Source: a virus (Duplodnaviria; Heunggongvirae; Uroviricota; Caudoviricetes). From it: a DNA stretch of 31,466 nucleotides. Positions 7,426-29,922 of this stretch are shown in pieces. Every line of letters begins with the position of its first letter. Position 1 is the stretch's first letter. The position numbers were made by a program, and so were the translations under genes. The notes under the pieces are model-generated. The model was given only the letters and a program-made list of their open reading frames with translations, ran no database searches and was not told the DNA's origin. The stretch lies in the IMG/VR virus record IMGVR_UViG_2645727604_000022. One strand, written 5' to 3'.

Positions 7426-8115
7426 TTAAAATGGAATATCAAAGTCATCATACACATTTGGGTAATTCTTAGAAAAATATGCCTCAATACCATTTGGTAG
7501 CTTTAACCTGTGCTTATAGGCTAACGATGTTGCAAATTCTATAAATGATGCTCCTCCTGTTCTGGTATTCTTCTGCTTGATAATAAGAGATGCAAAATTC
7601 TCTAACACATCCTCCTCATTATCATTAGCTACCTTTTCACTTGATGAAACAGGTGTTTCTTCCGTCTCCCACGGCAAAGGCGCATCCCAATCATCAAGAA
7701 CATCAAAAGAAGGCTGTTTATGGCCTTTAGGTTGTTCCTGTGCTTCTTCTGCCTCAGAAAGATCAGAGAGTGATGATTCTCCTGGGGGAGTAATATGTGC
7801 ATCTGTGAGAGGGAGAGCATTGTAAATCAAAGATGAAATATACGGATCAGGATGTGGGGATGTTTCTAATAATCCCATCTCTTTAAGATCGTTTATCTTA
7901 CGTTTAATTGTTGACGCTGAAGACTTAAAAATCTTAGCTAATGTTTCGTGACTTTCATAACAATTAAGGTTGTTTTCCTGATAACTAAGGAATCGAAAAT
8001 AAAGCACAATATGTAATAGATCTAAATCTTTTCCTTGAGGGAATTTATCAGAATAAATCTTTGATACATTATCAAACGTGTCATAGTGTTTTGTAAAAGT
8101 TAGTTGATTAATCAT
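7426..8115 (-). CDS. Putative replication initiator / replisome-organizer-like HTH protein with SSB-like C-terminal tip (229 aa)
   Basis: HTH-like segment HETLAKIFKSSASTIKRKINDLKEMGLLE, acidic disordered middle, extreme C-terminus YDDFDIPF (E. coli SSB ends DFDDDIPF). Confidence 0.6.
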   Translation of the reverse strand: MINQLTFTKHYDTFDNVSKIYSDKFPQGKDLDLLHIVLYFRFLSYQENNLNCYESHETLAKIFKSSASTIKRKINDLKEMGLLETSPHPDPYISSLIYNALPLTDAHITPPGESSLSDLSEAEEAQEQPKGHKQPSFDVLDDWDAPLPWETEETPVSSSEKVANDNEEDVLENFASLIIKQKNTRTGGASFIEFATSLAYKHRLKLPNGIEAYFSKNYPNVYDDFDIPF

Positions 8116-10440: not shown

Positions 10441-10980
10441 ATGAGCAATATCGGTTATAAGCGTGTGAGCACTGTAGATCAGAACACTGATCGCCAGCTT
10501 GCAGGAGTAACGCTTGATAAAGTCTTTGAAGATAAGCTGTCAGGTAAAGACACTAACCGTCCAGGATTGCAGGCGTGTTTATCCTATCTGAGAGAAGGCG
10601 ACACCTTACACGTGCACTCTCTCGACCGTTTAGGGCGTAACACCTTAGACATTCTTGCCTTAGTGGAACAACTTAATAATCGAGGTGTAATTGTTCGATT
10701 TCATAAAGAAGGGATCATTGCAGACATTACAAGCGCGATGGGAAAAATGATGCTTACGATGTTGTCGGCAGTTGCAACGTGTGAACGTGAACTGATGTTA
10801 GAGCGTAAACGAGAAGCGCAAGCCGTCAATCCTACAAAGCGTGGTAATGGAAAAGCAGTAGATAGAGAAGGTATAAAGAAAGCCCTTTCTGATGGCCTGT
10901 CAGTGCGTAAAACCGCCGAGAGCTTTAATGTTGCTCCTTCAACGGTACAGCGAATTAAGAAGGAAGAAGAGGAGGCGTAA
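10441..10980 (+). CDS. Small serine recombinase (resolvase/invertase family), 179 aa
   Basis: N-terminus MSNIGYKRVSTVDQNTDRQ with catalytic-Ser context, FEDKLSGKDTNRPGL and GDTLHVHSLDRLGRN match the Hin/resolvase family pattern; SD AAGGGGA upstream. Confidence 0.9.
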   Translation: MSNIGYKRVSTVDQNTDRQLAGVTLDKVFEDKLSGKDTNRPGLQACLSYLREGDTLHVHSLDRLGRNTLDILALVEQLNNRGVIVRFHKEGIIADITSAMGKMMLTMLSAVATCERELMLERKREAQAVNPTKRGNGKAVDREGIKKALSDGLSVRKTAESFNVAPSTVQRIKKEEEEA

Positions 10981-12183: not shown

Positions 12184-12202
12184 AATGGTGCCGATAATAG
12201 GA
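12184..12202. repeat. attL: 19-bp copy of the tRNA-Thr 3' end
   Basis: Identical to 30021-30039. Confidence 0.6.
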
Positions 12203-12263
12203 ACAATACACATAGGCGATAAGCTTTGTTTTTGTTGCCTTTTTTATTGTTCATTTTTTATAG

Positions 12264-12288
12264 ATACCCCCAAAAGTACCCCCATATC
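12264..12288. repeat. Tandem TACCCCCA half-site motif ATACCCCCAAAAGTACCCCCATATC, left-end copy (candidate integrase arm-type site)
   Basis: Near-identical copy (21 of 22 positions) at 29889-29913 in the same orientation. Confidence 0.4.
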
Positions 12289-12313
12289 TTTTTCCGCCCC
12301 TGAAATTTGGTTG

Positions 12314-12725
12314 TTATTCATACAGCATATCAGGCGGTAACGCTCTCCCTTTAACCCACTTATTGTATGATAGTGCTATCCCACAATAAGGAATCAGCCA
12401 GCCATGAGAATGACCAGCCGCAAAAAAGAGATACTTAGCTACTTTGAACCGGATAACCTCGAATGGGTGACTGGTGAGATTGGTGCGCCGCCCATAGTGG
12501 CGTGATTGCCGCGTTACCCATGCTTTCATCCTCACCCCATACGCGATACTCGCTACCTGGATCACCTTTACGCCCTTTCTCGAACATATACAGGTGTTCG
12601 TCATTCCAGCCAAAAGCTAACTGGATCACGGCATGAAGTTTACTAAAGGGGATTTGCTCTGGAACCAGCACACGCCGCCATATAGGTGGTTTGCTGTCTC
12701 GGATGGTTATCTTTAGCTGGTACAT
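12314..12725 (-). pseudogene. Frameshifted gene resembling the pRiA4b ORF-3-like family
   Basis: N-terminal frame MYQLKITIRDSKPPIWRRVLVP...AFGWNDEHLYMF continues in a second overlapping frame carrying YLFFAAGHSHGWLI; family assignment is from memory. Confidence 0.45.
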
Positions 12726-12845
12726 GCAAATCCTGAATAAATGCGAATCGGAAGGATAACGATACTGACGTACTCACAATTCTGTAAAGGTGAATAAAGG
12801 AAATTTGCTTAATACGCATAAGTTACATGTGGAATAATCCCATAT

Positions 12846-13031
12846 CTACCTGCGCGGCGCTGGCTTCTTCCACTGGTAGGCAGGTGCTCGCATCATTTCG
12901 CGGAACCTGTCGCGCCGGGCTATATCGGCATTAACTGATCGTTCTATCTCCCGTTGATCTGCCTGTGTAAGCTGATGGCCTCCGTGCTCAAGTTTGGCGA
13001 TGGTCAATAAGGCTATTTCGCGTGGTGTCAT
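12846..13031 (-). CDS. Hypothetical small protein (61 aa)
   Basis: ORF with SD AGAGGG 8 nt upstream. Confidence 0.35.
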   Translation of the reverse strand: MTPREIALLTIAKLEHGGHQLTQADQREIERSVNADIARRDRFREMMRAPAYQWKKPAPRR

Positions 13032-13328
13032 ACGTCATACCCTCTGGAAGAATGAAACACGCCCGGATTAAATTTCATTTTTCGCGGGTATAAAAAAACG
13101 ATGGGGCGGGCAGTCCCGGATAGTCAGGGCTGTAGAGATTTGACTACCCCCTCCCCACTGGATTCAGGTTACTGCTATTCCGTTAAGCGCTGCTTACGGG
13201 GATAGCTGCGTTGTGATTTTGACCATTCAGGTCGCCGCTATTTCCTCACCGATTGGGTGCTACGCGCGCGCGTACTTGTCCCGAAATACCAGAAACCGCC
13301 AGCCAGAGGATGATTTCCCTCTGGTGGT

Positions 13329-13610
13329 CTACCTTTGCCTCTTGCCGCCATTTAACCGGAAGGCGTTACCGTTCGGTTGCGCTATCCCCATGCGGTGTTG
13401 CGTTTCGGTAACAGCTTTATGCAGGTCGCCAAATTCCTCAACCTTCACGGGCGGGCGCTTCACGTTCTCCAGACACGTTTCACGGCGGCGCTTTATCCAT
13501 TCCCGATCATCGTCCTCGGTGCATAACAGCATGACTTCCATCCATCGTGCGGCAGCTCTCCGGTATAGCCCTTTTGACTCCAGCTCTTCAGCTTTCCTGT
13601 CCCTTATCAT
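13329..13610 (-). CDS. PerC-family-like small transcriptional regulator (93 aa)
   Basis: N-terminus MIRDRKAEELESKGLYRRAAARW resembles the PerC/Pch family as recalled; SD GAGAGG 7 nt upstream. Confidence 0.5.
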   Translation of the reverse strand: MIRDRKAEELESKGLYRRAAARWMEVMLLCTEDDDREWIKRRRETCLENVKRPPVKVEEFGDLHKAVTETQHRMGIAQPNGNAFRLNGGKRQR

Positions 13611-13640
13611 TTCTGCCTCTCAGATTATATAGATAAGCAA

Positions 13641-13770
13641 AAAGGTGTTGGTTCAGTTGGTTCAGTTGGTTCAATTTGTAAAGATTGTTGTTTTTATTGT
13701 GTTTTTTCTGAAATATTGAACCAACATCAACTCATTTTGAACCAACACAGCCCAGCTCTGAACCAACAAC
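13641..13770. repeat. Iteron cluster IR-L: three tight GTTGGTTCA repeats then three spaced TGAACCAAC repeats
   Basis: Reverse complement matches cluster 20679-20799, including a 43-bp perfect terminal match. Confidence 0.65.
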
Positions 13771-13869
13771 ACAGCGATAGATTTGTGATTGGTCCGTTAT
13801 TTTCTGGCTGATATTTGAGCGTATAACAGTGTTATACAGTGGTATACTGTATGGATATTACTCACTGAT

Positions 13870-14325
13870 ATGGTCTTTGCAATGAGCAAATCTAATCTGG
13901 TCGCGTTCCGCATCCCATCTGAATTGCAGGATGAGTTTAATCGGTCTGTTCTCGCTTCTGGAGGAGATAAAACCTCCTGGCTTGTTGATGCGATTCGCAT
14001 GAAGCTGGGGCAGCCGGAAAAGTCTATTGATTCACGAATGCTTGGGCTGGTGGAGCGCATGGAAAAAGCCGCTGCGTCGCTTATTGCCGGAAAGCCGAAC
14101 ATCCCACCAAAACCATATAACGAAACGGCAGTTATAAAGATCATTGCCGATACCATCCAACAGGGATTTGATAATGGGCGTGTGATAGCTGAACGGATCA
14201 ATGAAGCAGGCTATCAAACAAAAGCTGGTAAAGCGTGGGATAAAGATATTTACAGCGCGTGGAAGCGTCAGGGAAGCAATGCTGAAAAGCTAAAAGCAGT
14301 GATTGATTGTAAGGTCAGCGTATAA
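13870..14325 (+). CDS. Mnt/Arc-like ribbon-helix-helix domain protein with C-terminal extension (151 aa)
   Basis: RHH-like N-terminus SNLVAFRIPSELQDEFNRSVLASGGDKTSWLVDAIRMKLG; no clear SD. Confidence 0.55.
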   Translation: MVFAMSKSNLVAFRIPSELQDEFNRSVLASGGDKTSWLVDAIRMKLGQPEKSIDSRMLGLVERMEKAAASLIAGKPNIPPKPYNETAVIKIIADTIQQGFDNGRVIAERINEAGYQTKAGKAWDKDIYSAWKRQGSNAEKLKAVIDCKVSV

Positions 14326-14404
14326 ACATGAGTGCCCATTGGAAAGTTGCTTGGGCCAATACCTTTATACACCAGCAGGTAGTGACGATAGGTGAGGATC
14401 AGAT

Positions 14405-14626
14405 ATGAAAGGCAGAACGCCACACATTGAACATCAAGCCAACCACTTCCCTGATGTTCGCAATGAGATGATTGCCATTCGCGGTGATATGCACGGATTG
14501 GAGCGTCGAATTATTGATAAGATTGATGAAAATAGAGATAAGGCCAGTGAAAATCAAAAGTGGATCATCGGCCTGTTGATTTTATCAATTCTTATCCCGC
14601 TACTTATCGCATTGGTCACAAAATGA
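14405..14626 (+). CDS. Small protein with C-terminal transmembrane anchor (73 aa)
   Basis: SD GAGGA 9 nt upstream; C-terminus KWIIGLLILSILIPLLIALVTK. Confidence 0.5.
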   Translation: MKGRTPHIEHQANHFPDVRNEMIAIRGDMHGLERRIIDKIDENRDKASENQKWIIGLLILSILIPLLIALVTK

Positions 14627-15146
14627 ATATCCAATGTGTATGCTGTCGATGCTACGCGCGCGTACTTGTCGCAAAATATCAGGCAAAGGCCAGATTCAGA
14701 AAGTCGTGATAATCACCAGCACAACATGAGATGTCATGTAACGCGATTGATCACACCAGATACATGTGATGGTGTACCCGCATAAAACATCGTCATAGCG
14801 CGTCCTGTGCGCACATACGCCGATAATCAACACATCACCACCACTCTGTCTCGTGTAGAGAACAGTTTCATGGTATCCCCCGCCATCGTGTGCGTACTGG
14901 TCGGACGTGGTTGCAAAATTTTTGCAACTGATACCCCTCGCGCGCGTACTGGTCACGAAATTGGTGTTTTGCTGTGGCAGTGATATCAGAAAAATCTTCC
15001 TGTTTCACATAAAGCGGATATGCGCGTACTGTAACGACCCCATCAACGGGATCGGATTTGAAATCCTGACCCAAGCTATGTACCAAATGCCATGTCTTGG
15101 ATATATGATGATTGCCATTCTAAACAAAGCTAAAGGGAGGGTTGGT

Positions 15147-15503
15147 GTGAGGGGGCAGGCAGTTATAATTATTTTGTTGGGTTTAATTGTCGCAAAGTTA
15201 TACCCGACTTTATCGATGGTGTTTTTTGCCATTATTGGCGCAGCCATCTTTACTTATATCATTAAACATACCGCCTTGTGGTTCTATAAAATTGATATAG
15301 TTCAGAAGTTTGTACGTCCTGTGTCGATGTTATTACTAGCATTAATACCAATTGGTGTTGCTTATGTAATTGATGTTTTTTACCCTTCGGACACTGAAAG
15401 GTGGTTGATAGTTTTGTATTGTTATATTGGTGTAGCTCTCTTTTGTGGATTTCATTGGTGTTTCGAAAAGATCAATGACTCTATTTCAAAGAATAAAGAT
15501 TGA
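15147..15503 (+). CDS. AT-rich small integral membrane protein with four predicted TM helices; candidate immunity / superinfection-exclusion protein (ORF track frame opens at 14907; start here assigned to GTG 15147)
   Basis: SD GGAGGG 6 nt before GTG; four hydrophobic helices; about 37% GC on sampled lines versus about 63% in the adjacent 705-aa gene. Confidence 0.6.
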   Translation: MRGQAVIIILLGLIVAKLYPTLSMVFFAIIGAAIFTYIIKHTALWFYKIDIVQKFVRPVSMLLLALIPIGVAYVIDVFYPSDTERWLIVLYCYIGVALFCGFHWCFEKINDSISKNKD

Positions 15504-15517
15504 GGCCATCCGTGGCC
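15504..15517. terminator. Short hairpin between the convergent membrane-protein and 705-aa genes
   Basis: GGCCA-TCCG-TGGCC hairpin; weak flanking U-runs. Confidence 0.3.
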
Positions 15518-15522
15518 ATTCA

Positions 15523-17640
15523 CTAGTCATTATCTGGATCATTAGATAGCCAAGTAATGATGCCCAGTCTGGCGATGGTCCGTTTTTCCTGTTCAGGAAG
15601 AGAGTTAAAAAAACTCTTCCATTGAGGGGAGCGCCTGATACGTGAATCAACAATGTGCCCAGGCGCTTTTCCGTGTAGATTTTTTACTGCGCTCTGGAAG
15701 GCTGGCGAGGCAATTAATTTATCCGCAGCATCAGCCGCCCCTGCTCCACCAGCTAATCGAGCTTTACTCGCCAATCTTGCTCCAATATCAGCCCCAGCAA
15801 TGGCTCCAAGCGATCCAAAATGAGCGCCTACCATCGTGCCTATTTTTTGAATGTGTTTTGCTGCTAGTTCGTATGGAGCTGTTACCCGATTAAATCTGTT
15901 TACAAACTCATTCAGCTTACCAGTAGATATTTCATGCGCTTTAGCATTTTTTATTGCTCTGGCAACTTTGTATACATCATATAGTCCGCTCATTGTTTCT
16001 TTTGGCAAATGTTCAGCCAAAGTCTTTAGCTGTCCACTGTGTTGCAAGTTTTGCCACCAATCTGCAAAGCCAGATGGATTAAAGTCGGCCCCACGCTTCC
16101 CAGAGGAAAGCATATCTCTTAATGCTGTTCCTACTAGCTCCCTTCGCAATGTTCTTGATGGAGTATTTTGCATAATCTCACGAAACCCTCTCGCATCACC
16201 TTTTGCCATAGATTGAAGAGAATTCGTTACTTTATACGCTATATCCCCATTAAGTGTTTTCCCGCGAAGATTTACCATTTGCCTTTCTAAGTTTTTTCTC
16301 ATAGCTACAAGGCGTTGTGCGACTTCGAAATCTCGCAAGTATCCAGTATTGGATAAGACAGATTTTTGGTCTTCAGCTAAAGCTCCATATAGTCTTGATA
16401 GCGCTTCTTTATCAGCATCTTTGTATGGCCCCTGCTTTTTATTTAGGGCATCACCAACTAAACGCCTTTGCCTGTTTAAATTTGCATACGTTAGGATTCT
16501 ATCTGGGCCGGGGTTTATTGCTGTAAAAACTCGCTTTTCTATTGGGTCAAGATTATCCCACCCTCCTAAATCATCAGCGATTTTTTCCAGCATAGTGCTT
16601 GTGTTATTTGCTTCGACTTTTGTTCTTGGTGATAGAGCGGAATCAACACGTTTATATAACTGATCACTACGGTTTTTTAGTGCTTCCATTCTACTATTTA
16701 TCTGATAAATATATTTTTCGCTCATAGCTAACGCATCTGGCGCACCAGCAACATCATCGATTATCTTGCCAGCACTAGAGGCTAATTCGCTTATTGCTTT
16801 ATCTTCTTGAGCTTTTAACGCTGATCCTGTCCGTGACTTTAGGGCTTGCTCTACAGCTTGGTATTGCTCATTTCCTGATAAATGAGAAGGAAGAACTGAA
16901 TCAACATGAAGCCTATTTGCAGCCTCAACAATTTCTTTCTGAGGTTTTAGATCTAGCCCTTCAAGCGAAGAGGCAAGATTTGGGTTGCCTTGTGCAGATA
17001 ACTTACGAATTTTCTCTTCGGCAGGAGTAATCCCCTCAATATCTGGAATCGAAGAAACATTCTTCTTGGTTAATTTCCCAGCTATTTTATTAATTGCAGG
17101 GCCAGCAAGTTCGGCTACAGGGCCAGCCACAGCGCCAATAGCAGCGCCGGAAGCAACATCGCTATTTGTTCCATTGGCTACAATAGCCCCTTCTCCAGCA
17201 CCAAGCCCTGCGGCGGCAGCCAGTCTTGCCGCCCCTTTGGGAACCTGAGAAATAATCCCACCACCACTAACAAATGGCGCTGCTTGTCCAACGAACTCAC
17301 CAACATCTTGTGCGGTTGATGGTTTTGCCGCTAACTTCTGCTGTAGAGACTGAATTGCGGCTTGCTCTTCTGGTGTCATATCCTGAAACAGGCCAACACC
17401 TTTACCAACATCCATCAATCCACTGAGAACGCCATACATAAAACGGTCGAAACCGTTAGCATTATTAACAACATTTTCCTGTCTGGAATTTTCCTCTGGT
17501 GAAACCAAAGGTGATTGCTGCTGTTCTGGTTGGGCATCAAGCACAAAACCATCAGGAAGCTGTGAACTATCAGGAAACTGTGAGTTATCAGGTTGTTCAT
17601 CGAGCACAAAACCTTCCGGTAAGATTACATTTGCTGCCAT
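15523..17640 (-). CDS. Hypothetical large Gly/Ala-rich coiled-coil protein (705 aa), last gene of the LexA-box operon
   Basis: N-terminal repeats PEGFVLDEQP / PDGFVLDAQP, long Gly/Ala zipper segments, no P-loop or nuclease motif found. Confidence 0.75.
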   Translation of the reverse strand: MAANVILPEGFVLDEQPDNSQFPDSSQLPDGFVLDAQPEQQQSPLVSPEENSRQENVVNNANGFDRFMYGVLSGLMDVGKGVGLFQDMTPEEQAAIQSLQQKLAAKPSTAQDVGEFVGQAAPFVSGGGIISQVPKGAARLAAAAGLGAGEGAIVANGTNSDVASGAAIGAVAGPVAELAGPAINKIAGKLTKKNVSSIPDIEGITPAEEKIRKLSAQGNPNLASSLEGLDLKPQKEIVEAANRLHVDSVLPSHLSGNEQYQAVEQALKSRTGSALKAQEDKAISELASSAGKIIDDVAGAPDALAMSEKYIYQINSRMEALKNRSDQLYKRVDSALSPRTKVEANNTSTMLEKIADDLGGWDNLDPIEKRVFTAINPGPDRILTYANLNRQRRLVGDALNKKQGPYKDADKEALSRLYGALAEDQKSVLSNTGYLRDFEVAQRLVAMRKNLERQMVNLRGKTLNGDIAYKVTNSLQSMAKGDARGFREIMQNTPSRTLRRELVGTALRDMLSSGKRGADFNPSGFADWWQNLQHSGQLKTLAEHLPKETMSGLYDVYKVARAIKNAKAHEISTGKLNEFVNRFNRVTAPYELAAKHIQKIGTMVGAHFGSLGAIAGADIGARLASKARLAGGAGAADAADKLIASPAFQSAVKNLHGKAPGHIVDSRIRRSPQWKSFFNSLPEQEKRTIARLGIITWLSNDPDND

Positions 17641-18923
17641 TTTCCGTTCCTGTAAATGATTTTCTGACCAGTTTTAGGGTTGGTTGCCGTTGCGCCTTCT
17701 GATATTCCTCCGGTTGCCGCTTTTGCCTGTCCAGTGCCAGCCTGTGATGTAGGCTGCCCGGAAACATCGTCAAATAGCTTCGCTTTCCTTCTTTCAAGGC
17801 TTTTTCTTAGCCCCTGAGGAATAGTTTCTCCATATGTATCGAGATACTCGTCAACCTGCTGGTTAAACTGCTGCCCCATAGCATTGGCGTTGATTTTTGC
17901 GGCGTTAACAATGTTATCCTTTGCCTCCTGCGACAGGCCGTTTCCAGCATTAAGCTGGTCTATGTATCCTTTGATTTGTCCCCATATGCCATCAGACCGC
18001 ATTACCTGAACCTGTTCGCCTTCACGAACGACTGACTGCGGGTCAAGAGATTTCATGTAGTTGAAGATAATCCCAAGTTGGGCAGCGCCAGTATTTACCT
18101 TGCTAAGGGCTTGCAGAGAGTTTGCCGCCGCTCTGACAGAGTTATAATTTTTGCCAAAATTGGTAATGTCAGAATTTAATCCCTTAATTAAGTCTGCTGA
18201 CGGCTTACCTTTTTGCCCCAGCTCCATTAGCTTCAATCCCATCTCATCTGAGTGAATTTGTGCTCGCTGAGCCCTGTCTAGTTGAGCGTTCTGGATATTT
18301 GCCCATCCTCTCGCGTTCTCCATGTCAGCCTGACGCATACTTTCATCCAGTCGCCCTTGCTCAAGTCGACGACCTTCCATTTGATCTTTGATATCGAAAT
18401 ACTTCTCATGACCGAGAGAAAACAGTGCCATACTACCAGCAAGCCGCTGGAACCCCTGTGGATCATTAACATGCATTTCGGCAACAGACTCAGGAGAAAT
18501 TCCCAAGCGACGCATTTCATCTTCGTTATCTGCTATGAATTTTCCAAATGCCCCAGTTCCGAGCGAAGATGCGATTTGAGCACTAGTCGCAAGATGACCA
18601 ATAGAATTTCTCTGGTCGTCATCAATAAAGCCCATCCCTTTCTGAACGCTTTCAAATTCTTCTGGATACTCAGAAATAAGACTGCGCATTTTGTTTCTGT
18701 CTCCAGACTCAAAAGCCCCGGCATATGCTTTCTGAAACTCTGCTTTACGCTGTTGTTGACGTGCCTGCTGATTAATCTCAGCAACGCCTCTTAGCCCCTG
18801 TAGCGCCATTAAACCTACGTTTGGCTGCTGCTGATACTGCACAGGCTGAGGAACGGAAGAACGAGGAGCATTATCATTTTGCGGTGCCATGCTAGGCAGC
18901 CCGCCAAGTTGCCATGTCGCCAT
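17625..18923 (-). CDS. Hypothetical coiled-coil protein (432 aa)
   Basis: Q-rich N-terminus; overlaps neighbouring genes by a few nt (translational coupling). Confidence 0.75.
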   Translation of the reverse strand: MATWQLGGLPSMAPQNDNAPRSSVPQPVQYQQQPNVGLMALQGLRGVAEINQQARQQQRKAEFQKAYAGAFESGDRNKMRSLISEYPEEFESVQKGMGFIDDDQRNSIGHLATSAQIASSLGTGAFGKFIADNEDEMRRLGISPESVAEMHVNDPQGFQRLAGSMALFSLGHEKYFDIKDQMEGRRLEQGRLDESMRQADMENARGWANIQNAQLDRAQRAQIHSDEMGLKLMELGQKGKPSADLIKGLNSDITNFGKNYNSVRAAANSLQALSKVNTGAAQLGIIFNYMKSLDPQSVVREGEQVQVMRSDGIWGQIKGYIDQLNAGNGLSQEAKDNIVNAAKINANAMGQQFNQQVDEYLDTYGETIPQGLRKSLERRKAKLFDDVSGQPTSQAGTGQAKAATGGISEGATATNPKTGQKIIYRNGKWQQM

Positions 18924-19600
18924 TAGAATCCAAGCCCCCCAACAAGACCAATAAGCCCACCACCAATAGCGCCGGCCGCAGTTCCTATTCCAGGAACAAC
19001 GGAACCAAGTTGCGCACCCGCTAAAGCGCCTGATGCTGCCCCACCAATACCACGCGCAAGACTGGATGGCTGCTGCGCCTGACCTGCACGAATAGCGCCA
19101 AGCCCCTGCAAGAGTTGTCCGGTATTATTGGCGTAGTTTTGCCCTGCCGTTGCCTGCCCTGATGCCGCATTCATCCCGACATTTAGCAGGTTTCCATAAT
19201 TTTGCATTTGCCCACTAAGCCAATTGTTATAAAGCATGGGCGCAATGGAAGATAACTGGTTACTGGTAGCTGTTGAGCCAAGCCCCCCGGTAGCTTCTGC
19301 TGAGACAAGGTTCTGATAACGGGCCTGATCTGCCTGTGTTTTATATAAACCAGAACCAAAGAAATCATTCGCGGCTTTATTCTGCCCTTCCAGAGTCATC
19401 AGTCCTTGTAGTTGTTGTAAAGCAGGCAATCCGACTTCTGCATACGGCTTGAGATTATTCATCACCGTATTCCACTGCTCGCGCTGCAAATCAATTGCCT
19501 GCTGCTGGGCCTTCGCCTGAGCTTTAGAGGCACCACCATCACCGCCTTTTTCGTATACGGCACGATTGAGATGTTTATGAGCTATATGGGTAATTAACAT
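18923..19600 (-). CDS. Hypothetical protein with extremely Gly-rich hydrophobic C-terminus (225 aa)
   Basis: C-terminus GIGGAASGALAGAQLGSVVPGIGTAAGAIGGGLIGLVGGLGF. Confidence 0.7.
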   Translation of the reverse strand: MLITHIAHKHLNRAVYEKGGDGGASKAQAKAQQQAIDLQREQWNTVMNNLKPYAEVGLPALQQLQGLMTLEGQNKAANDFFGSGLYKTQADQARYQNLVSAEATGGLGSTATSNQLSSIAPMLYNNWLSGQMQNYGNLLNVGMNAASGQATAGQNYANNTGQLLQGLGAIRAGQAQQPSSLARGIGGAASGALAGAQLGSVVPGIGTAAGAIGGGLIGLVGGLGF

Positions 19601-20055
19601 TCGCTGAATTCCTTATATTGTTGCCGAGTTAACTGATAAAGCGTTACGCCGACGGGTTTACCACATCTGATATAAGCATCATCAAGGTGACCAACACGGG
19701 TAGCGCCAAGCAAACGGATAATTGCCCGTCCGTATTTCGTGGTGTCAGGAACCATAGTGATGCTGTTAAGGAATGGTGAGTTTTCGAGAAGCCATTTGCA
19801 GAATAATCGATGTCCTTGCAGTGCATATTCACCACGGAATCCGGGGTCGTACACCGCATGGCATTCAACAACGCTATGCCAGAAGTTACGCACTTCATGA
19901 ACGCCAGCCAGCACTAATCCTTCGTAGATGCCGAGATATACCGCATCAGGCTTGATGTAGTACGTGTGCCCCGGCTCAACAATATTTTCGGTATTGCCTG
20001 GCTCGTTAAGAAAGGCCTGTAATCGCACAGGGTTATCAATAAATTTTAGTTCCAT
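19594..20055 (-). CDS. Hypothetical protein (153 aa)
   Basis: ORF coupled to downstream genes; no diagnostic motif (GNAT motif looked for and not found). Confidence 0.7.
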   Translation of the reverse strand: MELKFIDNPVRLQAFLNEPGNTENIVEPGHTYYIKPDAVYLGIYEGLVLAGVHEVRNFWHSVVECHAVYDPGFRGEYALQGHRLFCKWLLENSPFLNSITMVPDTTKYGRAIIRLLGATRVGHLDDAYIRCGKPVGVTLYQLTRQQYKEFSEC

Positions 20056-20071
20056 GCGATGCCATCCATTT

Positions 20072-20233
20072 TCACATACAGCCTGCCAGCGCCTTATCTA
20101 TTAACCCTCGTGCAATTTCATGCAGAGTTGGCGCTACTCCAATTCCTGATTTTTTACGCTGCTCTTCCTGAATTTTCTTTATCGCTTCCATTTGCTTCTC
20201 ACTTATCAATACCGGCTTTACTGAAATAGCCAT
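20072..20233 (-). CDS. Small RHH-like putative regulator (53 aa), first gene of the operon; not in the ORF track
   Basis: Hand translation MAISVKPVLISEKQMEAIKKIQEEQRKKSGIGVAPTLHEIARGLIDKALAGCM; GGGGG 5 nt before ATG. Confidence 0.45.
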   Translation of the reverse strand: MAISVKPVLISEKQMEAIKKIQEEQRKKSGIGVAPTLHEIARGLIDKALAGCM

Positions 20234-20248
20234 AACGCCCCCTTAGAA

Positions 20249-20264
20249 CTGTATAAAACAACAG
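20249..20264. promoter_or_regulatory. LexA-type SOS box CTGTATAAAACAACAG, immediately downstream of a perfect TATAAT (20267-20272, minus strand)
   Basis: Matches CTGT-N8-ACAG with an AT-rich spacer; sits 16-31 bp upstream of the RHH start codon; only such box found in the window. Confidence 0.45.
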
Positions 20265-20678
20265 TTATTATAGTTTCACAAATCGCAATATTCATCATCG
20301 TAATTGCAAAATATGAAACAAATAGCACAAAAAAATGCCACCGCTCAGTAGCTGGTGGCATCGTTCTGTGTGTCAGGTTTTGACAGGTTTTTTATGGACT
20401 CTAAAAACTATATTTATGGTGTCGCATTACTCTTCACGGCAGGCGCTTTTCAGTTCTGCCCTTGCTTCTGGCTCCATTGGTAATTTGATTCGCGATCAGC
20501 TATGCGGATGGTTTGCTGAACAGGCATAACAACTTCTCAGAGGCTGTTTTCTGAACTACGAAAATTTCGTAGTGCTCACTTTCAAAAACGTCACGCCCTT
20601 GTACACAGGATTTTACGAAAGTCTCGTAAAACACTCTCTGATGCCAGCCAGGTGTTGTGCGCATCAATTCAGTCACAT

Positions 20679-20799
20679 TGTGTTGGTTCAAAATACCGTG
20701 TTGTTGGTTCAGTGTTGGTTCAATAAAAAGAATAAAATCCTTATAAAACAATACTCTTTACAAATTGAACCAACTGAACCAACTGAACCAACACCTTTT
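20679..20799. repeat. Iteron cluster IR-R: inverted partner of 13641-13770, 19 bp downstream of the primase-helicase stop
   Basis: Three spaced GTTGGTTCA then TGAACCAACTGAACCAACTGAACCAAC. Confidence 0.65.
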
Positions 20800-20817
20800 C
20801 TACGCACATGAAGAAGC

Positions 20818-23577
20818 TCATTCTTCAGATGAGTTATAATCTCCTGGCTGGTAATTGAGTACATAAACGTTTATTTGTCGTCCCTGAATACGTGGTGATT
20901 TTCTTTGGTATCCACGACCGCTGTTTGGTGGGGTTAGCATCCCGGCTTTTTTCAACACTTCAGCAAACTGTTTTGCGTTGAAACCACATGCGATCTCCTT
21001 TTCAAATGTGGCCGGGAATGTGTAGAAAATCATTGGGCTTTCGTCATGTTCTCCACGCTGACGGTATCCGGCTAAATCTTTGATGGGCAAATCTGCCGGG
21101 CTGTATGGAAATGGTGCAAAACGGCTAAGCCCATAGGCATTAAGAAATGCCTCCGTTTGTTCAATAATCTGCTGATGCTCTTTGTTACCTGTGCCGAACT
21201 CGCGCAACCATGCGTTATAGCTGTGCTGTATCGCATCACGGCATGTCTGAGCATCCCAGCCTGTTACAACCTCGCCTAACAACAATGCGGCCTCCAGAAT
21301 GGCAAATCGCGCGGCTACACGGTGAACCTGCTCACCATAATCGGATGGGATCAGGCTTCTCCATCTGCTTTCGCAGTCACGAACGGTTTTAATAGCCTGT
21401 TGCTGGTGGTCTGCCAGCCATTTAATCCACTCACGCCCGGACGCGCCGTGGTGATGCTGGTAAGCGTCTTTCAGTGCGTCTGCGTGCTGTTTTCCGTTCT
21501 GGTAATCGTGAAAGCGTACTGCTTTACTCAACGGAATATTCAGCAGTCGCACCAGTTGCCCGGCTTTGGTTTTTCGCCCGGAAGTAGCGATAAATGTTTC
21601 TAAATCCATTTCTCCGGTGCTGATTGCCACTGTACGCCAGCGTTTTAGATCCCGGTTTCCACCATCTTTAGCGCCTTGCAGTTTCCCTACACCGTTAAAT
21701 AACGCATAGGCAGACTGTGAGACGCTGACAGGATCAGCGCCCTGACCAACTTCATCAAGCGGCATTAGTCCGTCATTGTGGGCGGCGGCCTCATTTGCCA
21801 GCCCCAGCGCGGTTCCGTACCACGTCAGCCGCAGTAAATCAGGGTTGCCGTATAAGCTGCTCGCCACGTTTGCCGTGGTGGTCTTACCTGCGCTCGACTG
21901 CTCATAGAAATGAATGCCGAACCCGTCAGCGCCCACCAGCCCAATCAATGGCGCTGCCAGTGCTGCGCCGATCCCGGTCATCATTGAATAGTTACCAAAG
22001 GACAGACGCGCCACGTTATCACGCCAGCTTTTCTCGCTCCCTGAGACGGTATATCCGGCTGCGGCTGAGCTTCTCCCGCTGAACAGCACAGGATTTTCAG
22101 GTGTTCCGATGATTTCCCCATCAGGCATGATGTACGCTCCGCATTGCCAGCCAGTGGCATGAGCAACACGCCACAATTCACGAGAGCCACTGCGTTGTAG
22201 CCAGTCTGCCAGTATTGCTCTGAGGCTGCTTTTGGTCGTGACATTTACCCCACCAGCTTTAAGTGTGCGCCATCCTTCACGTTCACCAATATCAGCCAGT
22301 GGAATGGCAGCGGTTGTCGGCGTTTCAGAACCAAACGACAGCCAGCGAAGAATGAGATACTGGTCTTTATCGTCTCTGCCAGTACCGATAACGCTTAACG
22401 GAGAACATAACCAGCTTTCGTTATTGATGATTTCTCCACTCTGGCTGTCAGCTCTCGGAGATACCCAATAAATACCATCCTCGCGGCTTTCTATTCTTGG
22501 TTTCAGTGGATCGGTATCCATAACCTTAAAATCGCTTCCCTCAATGGTCTGTGGCTCCTGTTTCACGCCATTACCCTGTGGTTGGTACATTGACTTATTG
22601 AACGCTTCTGTGGCGCATTTAATGCCGTGTTTTTGGTGGTAATCATTCCAGTCTGCTTTGTGATCTGTCGGGGGTAATGCCACCCATCCAGAAACAGATA
22701 AAGCTGCTTTTTCTGCTGCTATTCTCCCCGTGTTTTGTCTTCCTTCGCTGTGGTCGTTATCCGCAGCAATGATGATTTGTGCTGAAGGAAATTTATCCCG
22801 CAGTACCTGGGCGACATATAACAGGTTCCCGGCATCAATCGCCGCCACTGTCAGCGCCTCTGGACGCATTAAATGGGCAGATAATGCCGTTGCCAGCCCT
22901 TCTGCGATTAAGATGCTCTGTGTTGTTTCTGGTGCGTTTATGGCGTGATATGCCCCTCGCTTTGCTGAACCTGTCAGGAGTCTTTTTTCACCATGTGAGG
23001 TAATAGTCTGTGCTGCTGTTACTGCGCCGGATTTATCCACCAGCGCCAGCAACAGAGATCCATCGGGCAACACGGGGAATGTAAAATCACCTACCCCTTT
23101 CGCAACCAGATAATCAGATTTGCCGTTTACAGCCTTTCTGCGCATGTCATCAAACTGACGGGAAAACGTATCCCGTCTTTGTTGTTCGTCCTTCTCTGCC
23201 CTTTTCAGGCGCTCCTGTTCGCGTCGCTGGCGCTCGGTTTCCAGTTGTTCCCGTTTCTGGCTGGTGGCTTCTGGTGTTTCCGTTGTCCGGTAATCAATAC
23301 CCAGAACATCAGCGGCAAGAAGCGCCGCCTCTGTTGTGTCGCAGTTATTTACGCGTTTAATTAAATCCAGCCCATCACCAGCGCCGCACTGATTACAGAT
23401 GAAGCTACCGCGCCCGTTGTCATCGAACCGGAATCGATCTTTGCCCCCACATGCAGGGCAGGGAGCATGACGGCGCGGAGAGTCAGGGACATTTATGTTC
23501 AGGCAGCCCAGCACATGAGGCCAGTTGTTTTCAGACGCACTGATAACCTGACGGATAAGATCAATGTTTCGCATCAC
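20818..23577 (-). CDS. P4 alpha-like primase-helicase (919 aa)
   Basis: N-terminal zinc-ribbon CPACGG...CNQCG, P-loop YEQSSAGKTTT; size and context typical of satellite/island replication proteins. Confidence 0.85.
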   Translation of the reverse strand: MMRNIDLIRQVISASENNWPHVLGCLNINVPDSPRRHAPCPACGGKDRFRFDDNGRGSFICNQCGAGDGLDLIKRVNNCDTTEAALLAADVLGIDYRTTETPEATSQKREQLETERQRREQERLKRAEKDEQQRRDTFSRQFDDMRRKAVNGKSDYLVAKGVGDFTFPVLPDGSLLLALVDKSGAVTAAQTITSHGEKRLLTGSAKRGAYHAINAPETTQSILIAEGLATALSAHLMRPEALTVAAIDAGNLLYVAQVLRDKFPSAQIIIAADNDHSEGRQNTGRIAAEKAALSVSGWVALPPTDHKADWNDYHQKHGIKCATEAFNKSMYQPQGNGVKQEPQTIEGSDFKVMDTDPLKPRIESREDGIYWVSPRADSQSGEIINNESWLCSPLSVIGTGRDDKDQYLILRWLSFGSETPTTAAIPLADIGEREGWRTLKAGGVNVTTKSSLRAILADWLQRSGSRELWRVAHATGWQCGAYIMPDGEIIGTPENPVLFSGRSSAAAGYTVSGSEKSWRDNVARLSFGNYSMMTGIGAALAAPLIGLVGADGFGIHFYEQSSAGKTTTANVASSLYGNPDLLRLTWYGTALGLANEAAAHNDGLMPLDEVGQGADPVSVSQSAYALFNGVGKLQGAKDGGNRDLKRWRTVAISTGEMDLETFIATSGRKTKAGQLVRLLNIPLSKAVRFHDYQNGKQHADALKDAYQHHHGASGREWIKWLADHQQQAIKTVRDCESRWRSLIPSDYGEQVHRVAARFAILEAALLLGEVVTGWDAQTCRDAIQHSYNAWLREFGTGNKEHQQIIEQTEAFLNAYGLSRFAPFPYSPADLPIKDLAGYRQRGEHDESPMIFYTFPATFEKEIACGFNAKQFAEVLKKAGMLTPPNSGRGYQRKSPRIQGRQINVYVLNYQPGDYNSSEE

Positions 23578-23932
23578 CGTACCCCACGTGGTCTATAGCG
23601 TTTGCGATATGGCTAACTAGCATCTGCCACTTGGTTATTCCGTAATCAGTCAGCATGCCATCATTGTTTAGCCACATATCAAATTCAGCGGTTGTCGCAA
23701 GTTTCCACTTATCGCCGTGGACAGTCCTCATTGCTGGGTACATGAATGCGCAAATCAGATCACAAACATCTGACGGCTTCAGAGATGTAGTAATGGTGCG
23801 TCCCTCTGGCGTCTGAATTGCCATTTTCTCTTCACCAGTAGAATGAAGGTTATGAATCCACACAGCACCAGCAATCTTTGCCACCTGCTCTCCGATTGCG
23901 GAGCTAAGCGCCATTTCTACATTTTCACGCAT
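23561..23932 (-). CDS. Hypothetical protein (123 aa)
   Basis: ORF overlapping the primase start (coupled). Confidence 0.55.
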   Translation of the reverse strand: MRENVEMALSSAIGEQVAKIAGAVWIHNLHSTGEEKMAIQTPEGRTITTSLKPSDVCDLICAFMYPAMRTVHGDKWKLATTAEFDMWLNNDGMLTDYGITKWQMLVSHIANAIDHVGYGDAKH

Positions 23933-24266
23933 GAGAACCTCCCGCTACAGTTGCGCCCATGTCATTAACCATGCTTTGCCATATCTCACGCCCGACGTCA
24001 GTCAATCTGTCCTTAGTGACGCAACGATCAAGAAGCTCGATCCCCACGGTTTCCCACTGCGGGTAGAACACTTTCATGGCTGCCAGTGCGTAACTATCGA
24101 TCAGGCTGCGAACGCCTTTTACTCCATTGACGATTTCCACACGGACGGCCTCTCCGTCCGCATCAATCATGAAATAGTCCCCGCCGCTGGTGGAGGTAAT
24201 GTGGTTATACAGTGCTGACGCATACTTATTTGCCAGCGCATTCAGTCGGAAATTTTTAGTAATCAT
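23925..24266 (-). CDS. Hypothetical protein (113 aa)
   Basis: ORF in the coupled gene chain. Confidence 0.55.
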   Translation of the reverse strand: MITKNFRLNALANKYASALYNHITSTSGGDYFMIDADGEAVRVEIVNGVKGVRSLIDSYALAAMKVFYPQWETVGIELLDRCVTKDRLTDVGREIWQSMVNDMGATVAGGSHA

Positions 24267-24276
24267 GGCTCCATCC

Positions 24277-24879
24277 TCAGTGCGTCACTGGTTCCGCTGG
24301 CATGCCGTTTTCATTCAGTTCAGCTATAAAGCTGTTGTGAAGTTCAGCAAGCGTTTCACGACCAAATGGAGTCAGTGCTCCTTGTTCCACATCCATCATG
24401 GCTCTGTAGAAAATGATGGCGCGTTCTGTGCCAGACTCGATGCCAAAACGTTCTATCATCGCGCCCTCAATGTTGTTTGCCATAGCGAGGCGCTCTGCTA
24501 CTGGATACAGCGGCATGGCGACGATGCCGTTGGAATAAACAGCCACTTCGGAAGGATTGCCAGTATCATCAATGATGCTGACAGTGCCGTTTTCCTTTCT
24601 CATTTCATTGATGAATGCTGTTGCTATCAGCCAGCGCCACATAATCACGTGATGCTGTGATGTGTAATCGAAATATCCCTGGTTGCCGCCACTGGCAATA
24701 GCGAGATGTATAAACATGCCTTCATCTGGTTTATCGTCATAATCCCCGGCATCCAGACGATTTACGGCATCAATATATGAGACGGTCTCAACGCGTTCTG
24801 TCATGCCATCGTTGCTGCGGTACATGATGTTTACGCCGTCAGGCGTTGCTTCTGCATGGAAAGTTAAGAAATTATTCAT
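24277..24879 (-). CDS. Hypothetical protein (about 200 aa; start assigned to internal ATG 24879 rather than ORF-track 24984)
   Basis: GAGG 6 nt before ATG 24879; 8-nt overlap with the upstream gene. Confidence 0.5.
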   Translation of the reverse strand: MNNFLTFHAEATPDGVNIMYRSNDGMTERVETVSYIDAVNRLDAGDYDDKPDEGMFIHLAIASGGNQGYFDYTSQHHVIMWRWLIATAFINEMRKENGTVSIIDDTGNPSEVAVYSNGIVAMPLYPVAERLAMANNIEGAMIERFGIESGTERAIIFYRAMMDVEQGALTPFGRETLAELHNSFIAELNENGMPAEPVTH

Positions 24880-25093
24880 GTTTCGCCTCGCCTGAATGAT
24901 TCTGTAACTCATATTTGCCCAACAATTCGTCTGCTTCCTGAATAGCTTCTGGTACGCCATTGAGCAGTGACATAACCGCGCCAATCATTAACTTGTCTCT
25001 GTTGCTGGGGCTGGCCCCTTCAAGCCAGAACCCTAAAACAGTCTGAACCTGTTCGATGCGACATTGCGCTTCAATGAGCTGGATGTTGGTCAT
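24872..25093 (-). CDS. Hypothetical small protein (73 aa)
   Basis: ORF in the coupled gene chain. Confidence 0.45.
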   Translation of the reverse strand: MTNIQLIEAQCRIEQVQTVLGFWLEGASPSNRDKLMIGAVMSLLNGVPEAIQEADELLGKYELQNHSGEAKHE

Positions 25094-25353
25094 TTCGCAC
25101 TCTCCACATCGATTAAACCGATATCTATCAGGGAGGTAACTTTTTGTAGCCAGCTATTGATTACTGTCGCCTGTTCCCCTCCCACCGAGGGAACAATCTC
25201 ATTCATCACATGAACCAGACCTGTGCGCGCTCTGGTAAGCCGTTCAGTCGCGCAATCTGCGGGAGTGAATGTGTCTGGATATGGCTCTTCGCGCCCCAGC
25301 AATGATTCAATTTCCAGCTCACACGGATGACGATAAATTAAGTTGATATTCAT
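25090..25353 (-). CDS. Hypothetical small protein (87 aa)
   Basis: ORF in the coupled gene chain. Confidence 0.45.
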   Translation of the reverse strand: MNINLIYRHPCELEIESLLGREEPYPDTFTPADCATERLTRARTGLVHVMNEIVPSVGGEQATVINSWLQKVTSLIDIGLIDVESAK

Positions 25354-25544
25354 TTTTCACCCCCAAGAATTACCAGCTCGGCACGGGCATCGTTAACCAA
25401 AGATGAGCACGCTTTAATCGCATCCACGACATCAGCAGCGTCCATTTCTTCAGCCGAAAGACTGACAGCAACCAGGACAGCCGCTGCTTGCTCGATTAAT
25501 TGAAGTGCGGACGTAAGGCGAGGGGTATTAATTGAGTTATTCAT
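25350..25544 (-). CDS. Hypothetical small protein (64 aa from ATG 25544)
   Basis: GGGGG 6 nt before ATG; 8-nt overlap with the upstream gene. Confidence 0.45.
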   Translation of the reverse strand: MNNSINTPRLTSALQLIEQAAAVLVAVSLSAEEMDAADVVDAIKACSSLVNDARAELVILGGEK

Positions 25545-25755
25545 TGGTTGCCCCCGTTTTGCATGGCATTTGTCCACCTTCCAGCAGGAAATGAACGTCA
25601 CGAACGGCGAGATCCAATATCGCGAGTAACGCCTTCAGTCTTTCGTCTCGTGAGGGAGAGTTGCTCACCAGAATGTCGTTAATCACTTCTGTCAGTGTGA
25701 TGATCTGGCTTGTGCGTTCGAGGGGATCCATATGCACATCGTAGGTTTTAATCAT
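25537..25755 (-). CDS. Hypothetical small protein (72 aa)
   Basis: SD GGAGG 6 nt before ATG 25755; lies in the C-terminal frame of the 342-aa track ORF. Confidence 0.45.
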   Translation of the reverse strand: MIKTYDVHMDPLERTSQIITLTEVINDILVSNSPSRDERLKALLAILDLAVRDVHFLLEGGQMPCKTGATNE

Positions 25756-25942
25756 GTGCCACCTCCATGCGGATACGACCAGCAAAAAAGCAGATGTGAT
25801 CGCGCACCAGAGAACGGCGAGCATCGCGTTCAGACTCGGCAGCAATATGATGAATTTTGGCGGTAATTGTCGGGCAATCGCGGCGAACTGCGGCGATAAT
25901 CCAGATAAATTGCGGTTTTTGGGTAGGGGTAGTAGCCAGCAT
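25748..25942 (-). CDS. Hypothetical small protein (64 aa), first gene of the coupled chain leading to the primase
   Basis: Strong SD AAGGAGG 7 nt before ATG. Confidence 0.5.
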   Translation of the reverse strand: MLATTPTQKPQFIWIIAAVRRDCPTITAKIHHIAAESERDARRSLVRDHICFFAGRIRMEVAHD

Positions 25943-26099
25943 GTGGCAGCCTCCTTGATTGATGTTTTATAGCCACCGCCGGAGGTCCTAAGCTCGCTGG
26001 CGGTGGACTGTACAGGGTTAGGACTACTGGCAATCAAGGAAACCAGCCTGACCGAAGTCAGCCCCATACAGCCCACCATTGATAAGGTGTGCGTGTGCG

Positions 26100-26230
26100 C
26101 CGATACAAAAAAAGACGCTGGCGCGTCATGTATCGCCTCGATTGCCTGCGGGGTCCTAATCCCGGCACCCGTTTTATGAGGTGCCTTATAACCATAAACC
26201 GTGTTGCCGCATAACGGCAAGCTCTTTTTT
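26100..26230 (+). ncRNA. Candidate structured small RNA ending in an intrinsic terminator
   Basis: Hairpins GACGC-TGGC-GCGTC (26114-26127), GGCACC-N10-GGTGCC (26164-26185), terminator TTGCCG-CATAA-CGGCAA followed by CTCTTTTTT (26204-26230). Confidence 0.3.
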
Positions 26231-26565
26231 ATGGACTCCGAAAACTCACTATTGGAAGAACCAGAGGCACAGTACATCGCGCTCATTTCGTTAACGTCGC
26301 GCGTGCGGACGAAGATTTTTGTGGAGTCACTACGCGAGCAGAACAGGTCATCTACGACCAGAAATTCTCTGGCGCAGCCGCTGACCTTCTCAACGCTAAC
26401 ACCATCGACCGTAATTTCTGACATAGTTAAGGCATCCGCTCCTACCACCATAAAATGATAAGCTTTGCTTGTATCTGCTGTATTAATGCCAGACTTTGCT
26501 GTCATATTGCTGGATTTTTGCGACATAGCAGTCAGTGAAAATATCTTCTTCTGGACGGTTAGCAT
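26170..26565 (-). CDS. Protein-like N-terminal part of the ORF starting at 26565; 3' end unresolved (frame stays open to 25537)
   Basis: SD GGAGG 7 nt before ATG 26565, coupled to the upstream gene; the first ~130 codons look protein-like, the following codons read like translated structured RNA; the 26170 end is arbitrary. Confidence 0.3.
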
Positions 26566-26741
26566 TTGTTAACCTCCGCGAACTCCTTCATGAAGCGCGC
26601 CAGCGGTTGTACGCATGGCGATTGATACCCGTCGCGATAAAACGTCACTCGGTTGTGAGACACGCTTTCGACAGTAACGAGTGCTCCGTGGGCATCTTTG
26701 TAGCGTTTTTGAGGTTGTGGTGTTCCTGTCGGCTTAAACAT
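26559..26741 (-). CDS. Hypothetical small protein (60 aa from ATG 26741)
   Basis: SD GGAGG 6 nt before ATG; start overlaps the AntA-like stop. Confidence 0.4.
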   Translation of the reverse strand: MFKPTGTPQPQKRYKDAHGALVTVESVSHNRVTFYRDGYQSPCVQPLARFMKEFAEVNKC

Positions 26742-27567: not shown

Positions 27568-27579
27568 TTTCAGTCTCCG

Positions 27580-29857: not shown

Positions 29858-29888
29858 TTGGGGGTACCTCCACTAAACCGAACAGCAA

Positions 29889-29913: not shown

Positions 29914-29922
29914 ACCGTAGAT

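Follow-up and report, generated by a model that had tools for sequence, protein, structure and literature searches.

Two inverted iteron units, set apart by a cargo of P22-type ejection genes, as probable origin sites of an EcCIMP1-type phage-inducible chromosomal island

As published, the replication origin (ori) of phage-inducible chromosomal islands (PICIs) and Staphylococcus aureus pathogenicity islands (SaPIs) lies directly 3' of the rep gene and is built from 6–12 iterons around an AT-rich centre, which has two or more of them to either side, the two sides running in opposite directions (PMC6092414, PMC9371898). Rep reads these iterons through a winged helix at its C-terminus, and a segment carrying rep and ori can drive plasmid replication (PMC6092414, PMC9371898). 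Origins of this kind have so far been treated as one compact site after rep. For one such island, the PICI EcCIMP1, experiments have demonstrated excision and transfer by the P22-like phage Kapi1 (PMC11773190). Here, we analyze a 31,466-nucleotide stretch of viral DNA (Caudoviricetes; IMG/VR record IMGVR_UViG_2645727604_000022), hereafter the window, which contains a close relative of EcCIMP1 with two inverted clusters of iterons, A and B, bracketing a cargo of about 6.9 kb beside a primase-helicase gene, pri-rep. Our preferred reading, to which we assign a probability of roughly 70%, is that both clusters are origin units of the Pri-Rep protein, B being the canonical PICI ori and A a second, differentiated and ancestral partner that would act in replication in cis.

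The 9-mer TGAACCAAC occurs 12 times in the window and always within the two clusters, against a chance expectation of 0.26 and a maximum of 2 in 100 shuffles of the 31.5-kb sequence. In cluster A, three minus-strand copies stand head-to-tail (13647, 13656 and 13665) and three plus-strand copies are spaced by 21+21 bp (13717, 13738 and 13759), while cluster B holds three spaced minus-strand copies (20682, 20703 and 20714) and three tight plus-strand copies (20766, 20775 and 20784). The tight and the spaced set of each cluster are therefore opposed in orientation, three iterons to three, and are separated by 43-bp spacers that are 81% AT in A and 84% AT in B, compared with 56% for the window. 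The clusters are reverse complements of each other, with 55-nt arms (13640–13694 and 20745–20799) that match at 96%, and 6,914 bp separate their innermost iterons. An earlier sequence-only reading of this DNA had described three tight and three spaced copies per cluster in a reverse-complementary pair, which the copy positions and the arms bear out; it had also reported a perfect terminal match of 43 bp, and such a perfect inverted run does exist, although its length is 45 bp (13640–13684).

Each cluster taken separately has at least two opposed iterons on the two sides of an AT-rich region. As both fit the published ori layout, we term them origin units, proximal (B) and distal (A). Unit B also occupies the position of a PICI or SaPI origin directly 3' of pri-rep, its repeat ending 18 nt and its last iteron 25 nt from the primase stop codon, and unit A, 7 kb off, does not. 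Judged by layout and position, unit B is an ordinary PICI origin. A sigma-70 scan of both units revealed no promoter-like site within or adjoining either of them, a scan between the primase and unit B found no terminator, and DnaA boxes, IHF sites and GATC sites were looked for inside the units with nothing convincing. Cumulative GC skew tracks gene orientation and turns at ~15.4 kb, away from both units. A CTGGCTGGCA motif on the primase strand (20642–20651) lies ~30–45 bp inward of the proximal unit and is kept in several genera, whether the second unit adjoins the first or is distant.

To place the units among relatives, we scanned one genome per species, yielding 77 loci with primase homologues and 10 kb of flank seen at each, extended the overall comparison to about 140 related loci, and independently scanned viral contigs for the triple tight array. 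Four contigs (L082, L100, L121 and L128) that contain only a tandem run of TGAACCAAC without neighbouring homologues were excluded as apparently unrelated simple repeats. In nearly all of ~60 primase homologues, drawn from many Enterobacterales genera, a unit starts 27–60 bp past the stop codon. At least eight iteron words are in use (TGAACCAAC, GAGACAACA, ACGGGTTA, GAACCGAC, GTCGGGTA, GTGGGTTA, GGGAYAAGT and AACCGACC). Across the about 140 loci the word changes along with the primase C-terminus, a region of about 120 aa in Pri-Rep, and the two units of a locus always share their word. The last 60 amino acids of the primase have a median identity of 75% between loci with the same word and 42% between loci with different words; at some different-word loci the helicase core is still 85–92% identical while these residues drop to 32–49%, and distant proteins that keep TGAACCAAC are 59–86% identical over them. 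The two units belong to the primase-helicase and not to the cargo. The sequence-only reading had likened the iteron sets to the ori and crr of phage P4, serving the adjacent primase-helicase, and it was right in kind.

Wherever a locus has two units, the tight arrays are outermost and face outward. Among 40 TGAACCAAC loci, a mirrored second unit follows right after the first (~40-bp gap) in 12, near-contiguous variants occur in 2 more, and the second unit is 1.1–9.0 kb away in 10; a contiguous double unit is found in 17 of the 19 loci with other words. The second unit lies 0.4 kb from the first in Limnobaculum and 7.8 kb away in Citrobacter, where both carry the GGGAYAAGT word in the same layout, and in viral contigs the tight-array pairs are either 231 bp or 7.5–10.5 kb apart. 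Overall, units either adjoin each other (~40 bp) or have lineage-specific cargo of 0.4 to >10 kb between them. Split loci are scattered among contiguous ones when arranged by helicase similarity, indicating that the transition between the two forms occurred or reassorted several times.

Across genera, iteron columns are 97% identical in distal units and 98% identical in proximal units, compared with 73% and 72%, respectively, for the other unit-internal columns, and by this measure both units are under purifying selection. Their spaced iterons follow different rules: a spacing of 11+21 bp was seen in 32 distinct units, all 32 of them proximal, and a spacing of 21+21 or 21+22 bp in 22 units, 21 of them distal, the exception being the EcCIMP1 proximal unit. 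The distal unit also has a conserved TTTACAAAT element. On spacing, proximal and distal units are two differentiated subtypes. The spaced set is constant at three iterons, and the number of tight iterons varies, with 2 in H10407 (L002, ~11648), 4 in E. coli O111:H8 strain 8E (L142, ~11037) and 7 in an Erwinia metagenome-assembled genome (L062, 3988–4050), which suggests slippage within the 9-bp tandem array. At the Yersinia pekkanenii locus (L034) three double origin units fall within ~6 kb (−5712 to +348 from the end of the primase match, locus 13866) together with primase fragments, and this may be a tandem or rearranged array; one database protein from this species that matches the primase C-terminus is annotated as an HNH endonuclease domain protein.

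The protein that would read these sites resembles known initiators in two separate parts. BLASTP aligns Pri-Rep with P4 alpha over the first ~350 residues only (33% identity, E 2e-41); by Pfam, alpha consists of Zn_Ribbon_Prim, Toprim_3, D5_N, DUF5906 and Pox_D5 domains. The "P4 alpha-like" label that the gene had been given thus holds for the homologous Zn-ribbon/Toprim primase domain and fails for the helicase, an SF3-type helicase-initiator with DUF927. The sole solved relative of the helicase part is the SaPIbov1 initiator-helicase (PDB 8TCH, chain 8tch_A). The DUF927 domain, the SaPI Rep relative and the P4-alpha-like primase domain together indicate that the gene is a PICI Pri-Rep fusion. 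A profile search of PDB sequences with the C-terminal domain returned noise only.

Both clusters lie within a 17.8-kb island (12184–30039) at tRNA-Thr, bounded by 19-bp direct repeats of the tRNA 3' end and ~98% identical to EcCIMP1 over the core. Read from the tRNA, the genes are integrase, AlpA, AntA antirepressor, an Ash-family region, small ORFs (open reading frames) and the primase-helicase, followed past cluster B by homologues of P22 gp14, gp7, gp20 and gp16-like, three opposite-strand ORFs, cluster A and PerC. This is the gene order of EcCIMP1, where the two clusters are 8.4 kb apart, one of them 26 bp past the primase stop and the other next to PerC. Every gene from int through gp16-like is on the minus strand. 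Like Gram-negative PICIs of the EcCIMP1 type, the island has an integrase near the attachment site (att), direct repeats, a size within the ~10–20 kb range, AlpA after int, a unidirectional gene order and a pri-rep module; in gene content the element is an EcCIMP1-type PICI and not a P4-like satellite. In the excised 17.8-kb circle, the units delimit a 6.9-kb cargo arc and a ~10.7-kb arc that contains perC, att, int, the regulators and pri-rep. That the sets flank accessory cargo rather than the replication gene, as had been proposed, is accurate for the integrated form but not for the circle, where the other arc holds the primase.

What lies between the units is lineage-specific and consists largely of helper virion or DNA-delivery parts. 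The E. coli islands carry P22-type ejection proteins there, Chimaeribacter, Pantoea, Leclercia and Lonsdalea tape-measure proteins, Rosenbergiella and Cedecea SLT-domain proteins, and Serratia Dit, baseplate-hub and spike proteins; accessory genes in the gap include a P4 Beta-like protein, Fic and Abi. From these annotations, the clade seems to carry a DNA-delivery component matched to the virion type of its helper. An Abi-family gene sits directly after the small gene o151 in ETEC1721 (L143, 11717–12679) and some other E. coli islands, and the inter-unit region thus also receives defence-type accessory genes.

The sister island L146 (NZ_CP148430.1), a 12.15-kb circular record whose primase is 99.5% identical at the amino-acid level, has both units 1.8 kb apart and no ejection genes; the block that the window has in addition ends 513 and 597 bp inside the units. 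In L001, L002 and L143, a DUF5906 helicase has taken the place of unit B and of the last two-thirds of the primase, up to its C-terminus, while the cargo and unit A stay; islands with the replaced module include those of E. coli MS14385, H10407 and ETEC1721. The joint between the DUF5906 and TOPRIM-DUF927 types lies inside the primase gene, with the first ~350 aa 86% identical and the remainder unrelated, and the DUF5906 module has GGTACAGGT/GGTATAGGT iterons of its own in two clusters ~1 kb apart that flank two small genes. Family islands have also been deposited as circular 'plasmids' of 12–22 kb in complete assemblies (L146; L147, CP031371.2; L148, NZ_CP069874.1), which may be episomal forms caught during sequencing; among them, L148 belongs to the capsid-forming PICIs, encoding terminase, portal, protease and capsid, and its DUF927 primase goes with a double TGAACCAAC origin of contiguous units.

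Following the SaPI/PICI literature, Pri-Rep would recognise the 9-bp TGAACCAAC, most likely through its C-terminal domain, melt the AT-rich spacer and then load itself as the replicative helicase. Unit B would serve as the canonical ori directly 3' of pri-rep. Unit A could be a second origin at which the helicase is loaded in the opposite orientation, an option in keeping with how strictly the units mirror each other and with the contiguous palindrome that most relatives have, or it could be an auxiliary initiator-binding site, like crr of P4. In most relatives, the two adjacent units would then make up one mirror-symmetric origin of ~260–300 bp; here, and in a number of further lineages, genes for exploiting the helper and accessory genes lie between the units. 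A bolder version, which we hold tentatively and think more doubtful than probable, is that the PICI origin of this clade is inherently bipartite, its two differentiated, inverted units both needed in cis and each loading the self-loading helicase one way; the gap would then be a favoured, replication-linked site at which satellites time and again capture and swap helper-specific DNA-delivery modules such as ejection proteins, tape measures and tail-tip proteins, and the series from contiguous to split loci a living record of the evolution of a P4-style ori/crr arrangement.

The sequence-only reading had raised the possibility of a mobile cassette carrying the 6.9-kb cargo, with the clusters as its terminal inverted repeats, and a related idea makes them the arms of an invertible segment. 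The 55-nt, 96% inverted repeat at the two ends is what either would predict, and the content between the units does differ among relatives. Yet the outer flanks, GATAAGCA and CTACGCAC, have nothing in common, so that no target-site duplication is present outside 13641 and 20799, and no transposase or recombinase domain was found in the ORFs of 13768–20681 with Pfam, PHROGs and NCBIfam. The units also behave independently of the cargo: they stand side by side with nothing between them in most relatives; L146, an island that lacks the ejection block, retains both of them, contrary to what is expected of cassette ends, and its indel stops well inside them; and the cargo occurs with unit A alone in the DUF5906-type islands. 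As for inversion, 5,426 E. coli genomes were searched for the predicted junction, and none of the 636 that matched has it. With no duplication, no recombinase, no inversion junction, the L146 configuration and the module swap, we rejected both ideas, to which we attach next to no probability.

A number of observations weaken the idea that the distal unit is required, or that the C-terminus reads the iterons. In EcCICFT073, pri-rep with the adjacent ori is enough for plasmid maintenance (PMC6092414), so the distant unit may be dispensable. A single unit is all that is present inside the available 10 kb at 11 of the 40 TGAACCAAC loci, with a further 5 of 40 truncated. Orphan distal units are intact in L001, L143 and L142, where the primase has been replaced or deleted; these islands have diverged by only 1–4%, and persistence therefore cannot separate function from recency. 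The covariation is supported by C-terminus/core identity ratios of 0.88 between loci with the same word and 0.65 between loci with different words (Mann-Whitney p 2.6e-7), but this statistic takes no account of phylogeny. Finally, the C-terminal domain was modelled with low confidence (pLDDT 57), and the best Foldseek match of this weak model, SaPIbov1 Rep, is not significant (E 0.06).

One alternative that would accommodate the EcCICFT073 result is a control site, at which the distal unit titrates or handcuffs Pri-Rep and so holds replication down, or acts as an operator through which Pri-Rep represses the perC and o151 promoters. Unit A does sit in the divergent perC/o151 intergenic region, its tight iterons 37 bp from the PerC start codon, and it has its own conserved spacing subtype. 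Its origin layout is nevertheless complete, down to the 81% AT spacer and the conserved TTTACAAAT, more than pure titration would call for; no promoter relationship is fixed, as EcCIMP1 lacks o151 and other lineages have PerC past the proximal unit; the unit has no detectable sigma-70-like promoter; and negative copy control would seem of little benefit to a satellite that must over-replicate during a lytic burst. We accordingly consider a pure control function improbable. We give still less credence to a functionless duplicate or relic, left for instance by recombination between two islands and now hitch-hiking. Orphan copies do persist beside non-cognate DUF5906 primases and in degraded islands, and the tight array has drifted between 2 and 4 copies in E. 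coli islands. Against this stand the conservation of the distal iterons across genera relative to the remaining columns of the unit, the switching of the distal word with the primase in other lineages, and a spacing subtype that is both differentiated and stable; moreover, similarity to unit B ends 7 bp outside the tight iterons, with no primase remnant next to cluster A. We favour origin units of Pri-Rep as the reading of both clusters.

Coordinates of the units and of the island genes are listed in Table 1. The o151 protein has no match in Pfam or NCBIfam and one weak match in PHROGs (E 3e-4), to a family of unknown function. An operator-like palindrome, TATAACAGTGTTATACAGTGGTATACTGTAT, lies upstream of o151 at about 13826–13850, and in other genera GTAAGACAG repeats take its position (e.g. 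L060, ~19640–19665). One source names an o151 homologue an Arc-like DNA-binding protein, and with the palindrome this makes o151 look like an autoregulated small repressor beside the distal unit. On the other side of the primase, Rfam places a C4 antisense RNA (80 bits) and an isrK RNA (63 bits) back to back at 25996–26184 on the minus strand, a pairing that suggests a P1/P7-like c4-icd-ant immunity arrangement next to the AntA antirepressor. They sit inside a 342-aa ORF (25537–26565), Ash family by Pfam, whose call may be too long at the 5' end. The first 12,183 positions of the window are a separate element that abuts the island at the att repeat, with a second tyrosine integrase (1–1335) and Dit-like/baseplate (1417–2130), tape-measure-like (2165–3991), capsid-E-like (4294–5322), O/DnaD-like initiator (7426–8115) and resolvase (10441–10980) genes, and an ORF-poor stretch at 8.1–10.4 kb; it may be another small satellite in tandem.

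Table 1. Coordinates of the origin units, island genes and comparison features (window positions unless a locus is named)
Feature	Position	Strand	Basis and remarks
Distal origin unit (cluster A, type D)	13640–13767		Tight iterons 13647–13673, AT-rich spacer 13674–13716, spaced iterons 13717–13767
Proximal origin unit (cluster B, type P)	20682–20799		Spaced iterons 20682–20722 (11+21 bp read from spacer), AT-rich spacer 20723–20765, tight iterons 20766–20792; canonical PICI ori position
Pri-Rep fusion, 919 aa	20818–23577	-	Zn-ribbon primase (Zn_Ribbon_Prim), Toprim_3 and DUF927 helicase by Pfam
Distal att core	12184–12202		Exact 19-bp repeat AATGGTGCCGATAATAGGA at 12184 and 30021; far island boundary; same core at EcCIMP1 tRNA
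PerC-family regulator, last island gene	13329–13610	-	Pfam PerC, E 3.7e-30; annotated PerC in relatives
o151, conserved small protein	13870–14325	+	Adjoins distal unit in most split loci
Variable block missing from sister island L146	14281–20084		Limits by blastn against L146; includes o73, a 198-aa membrane-like ORF
gp16-like	15523–17640	-	P22-type ejection/assembly; Pfam, PHROGs
gp20	17625–18923	-	P22-type ejection/assembly; Pfam, PHROGs
gp7	18923–19600	-	P22-type ejection/assembly; Pfam, PHROGs
gp14/DUF2824	19594–20055	-	P22-type ejection/assembly; Pfam, PHROGs
AlpA-family regulator	28011–28214	-	Pfam Phage_AlpA, E 7e-20
Tyrosine integrase, P4-type arm-binding domain	28643–29857	-	Pfam
tRNA-Thr(CGU) and proximal att core (30021–39)	30021–30098	-	ARAGORN, Rfam; repeat
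Delivery-part examples in other genera	L022:14632–18042, L055:16228–18912, L020:14448–16250, L060:16258–18012, L035:13002–16125		
DUF5906-module iteron clusters in L001	18212–18307 and 19316–19418		Primase 19448–21799

The conserved second inverted unit, at variable distance and with cargo between, is described neither in the EcCIMP1 paper (PMC11773190), which does not mention an origin or iterons, nor in the 2018 PICI paper, nor in what full-text literature searches returned (figures and subscription papers were outside their scope); nothing relevant came up there on the iteron sequence or on PICI origins in duplicate, and the origin of EcCIMP1 has apparently never been described. Unit B as a PICI origin is of a known type, and the second differentiated unit and the placement of cargo between the units are apparently undescribed in the searchable literature. 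This second conserved unit, with a helper-specific module in between, is present in a large clade of Enterobacterales islands, of which EcCIMP1 is a member amenable to experiment, and the inter-unit gap marks a predictable location of satellite cargo. If the distal unit is functional, the mapping and engineering of satellite replication would change, for example in the choice of a minimal replicon for PICI-based delivery vectors, and the need of P4 for both ori and crr, so far without an explanation, could be tied to PICI origins in a testable way. If it is dispensable, the finding would amount to the correct annotation of a known origin type with a duplicated site.

Second iteron loci are familiar from iteron plasmids. 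In P1 (incC/incA) and F (ori2/incC), the initiator gene is flanked by the origin iterons and a second iteron set for the same protein. The second sets, incA of P1 and incC of F, have no AT-rich origin layout and act negatively by titration or handcuffing, and the initiators are of the RepA/RepE type, which recruit host DnaB and are not self-loading helicases. The window resembles these plasmids in having a second iteron locus, and differs from them in the AT-rich layout that its second unit has and in the kind of initiator.

P4 offers a closer parallel in arrangement. It has a ~120-bp unit (crr) ~46 bp past the alpha stop, with 9-bp tight copies, a ~40-bp gap and opposed copies, and a second iteron region 4.5 kb off, both for one primase-helicase-initiator whose N-terminal Zn-ribbon/Toprim primase domain is homologous to that of Pri-Rep. 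Its ori and crr are annotated in its record as both needed in cis, a requirement reportedly established by Flensburg & Calendar (1987) and Ziegelin et al. (1993). The comparison with ori/crr drawn by the sequence-only reading accordingly stands for two separated iteron regions with one past the alpha stop, and breaks down over helicase, iteron and repeat arrangement. The helicase and DNA-binding parts of alpha are D5_N/DUF5906/Pox_D5 rather than DUF927, and the P4 type I iteron TGTTCACC is absent from the window. The P4 crr is made of two direct 120-bp repeats and its ori has extra type-2 repeats, whereas the units here are inverted and separated; the P4 regions flank the alpha operon, whereas the short arc here holds virion and accessory genes. 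Gene content is likewise that of a PICI, with no sid, psu, delta or cos.

The nearest relatives remain the PICIs and SaPIs, such as SaPIbov1, SaPI5 and EcCICFT073. They share with the window an ori directly 3' of rep or pri-rep with opposed short iterons around an AT-rich region, a self-loading helicase initiator, to which the DUF927 helicase with its SaPI Rep relative in the PDB corresponds, specificity alleles paired with matching iterons, and the genes int, AlpA and PerC. The window departs from them in a second complete inverted unit with its own spacing subtype, which in this clade lies either contiguous with the first or up to >10 kb off, with a variable module between the two.

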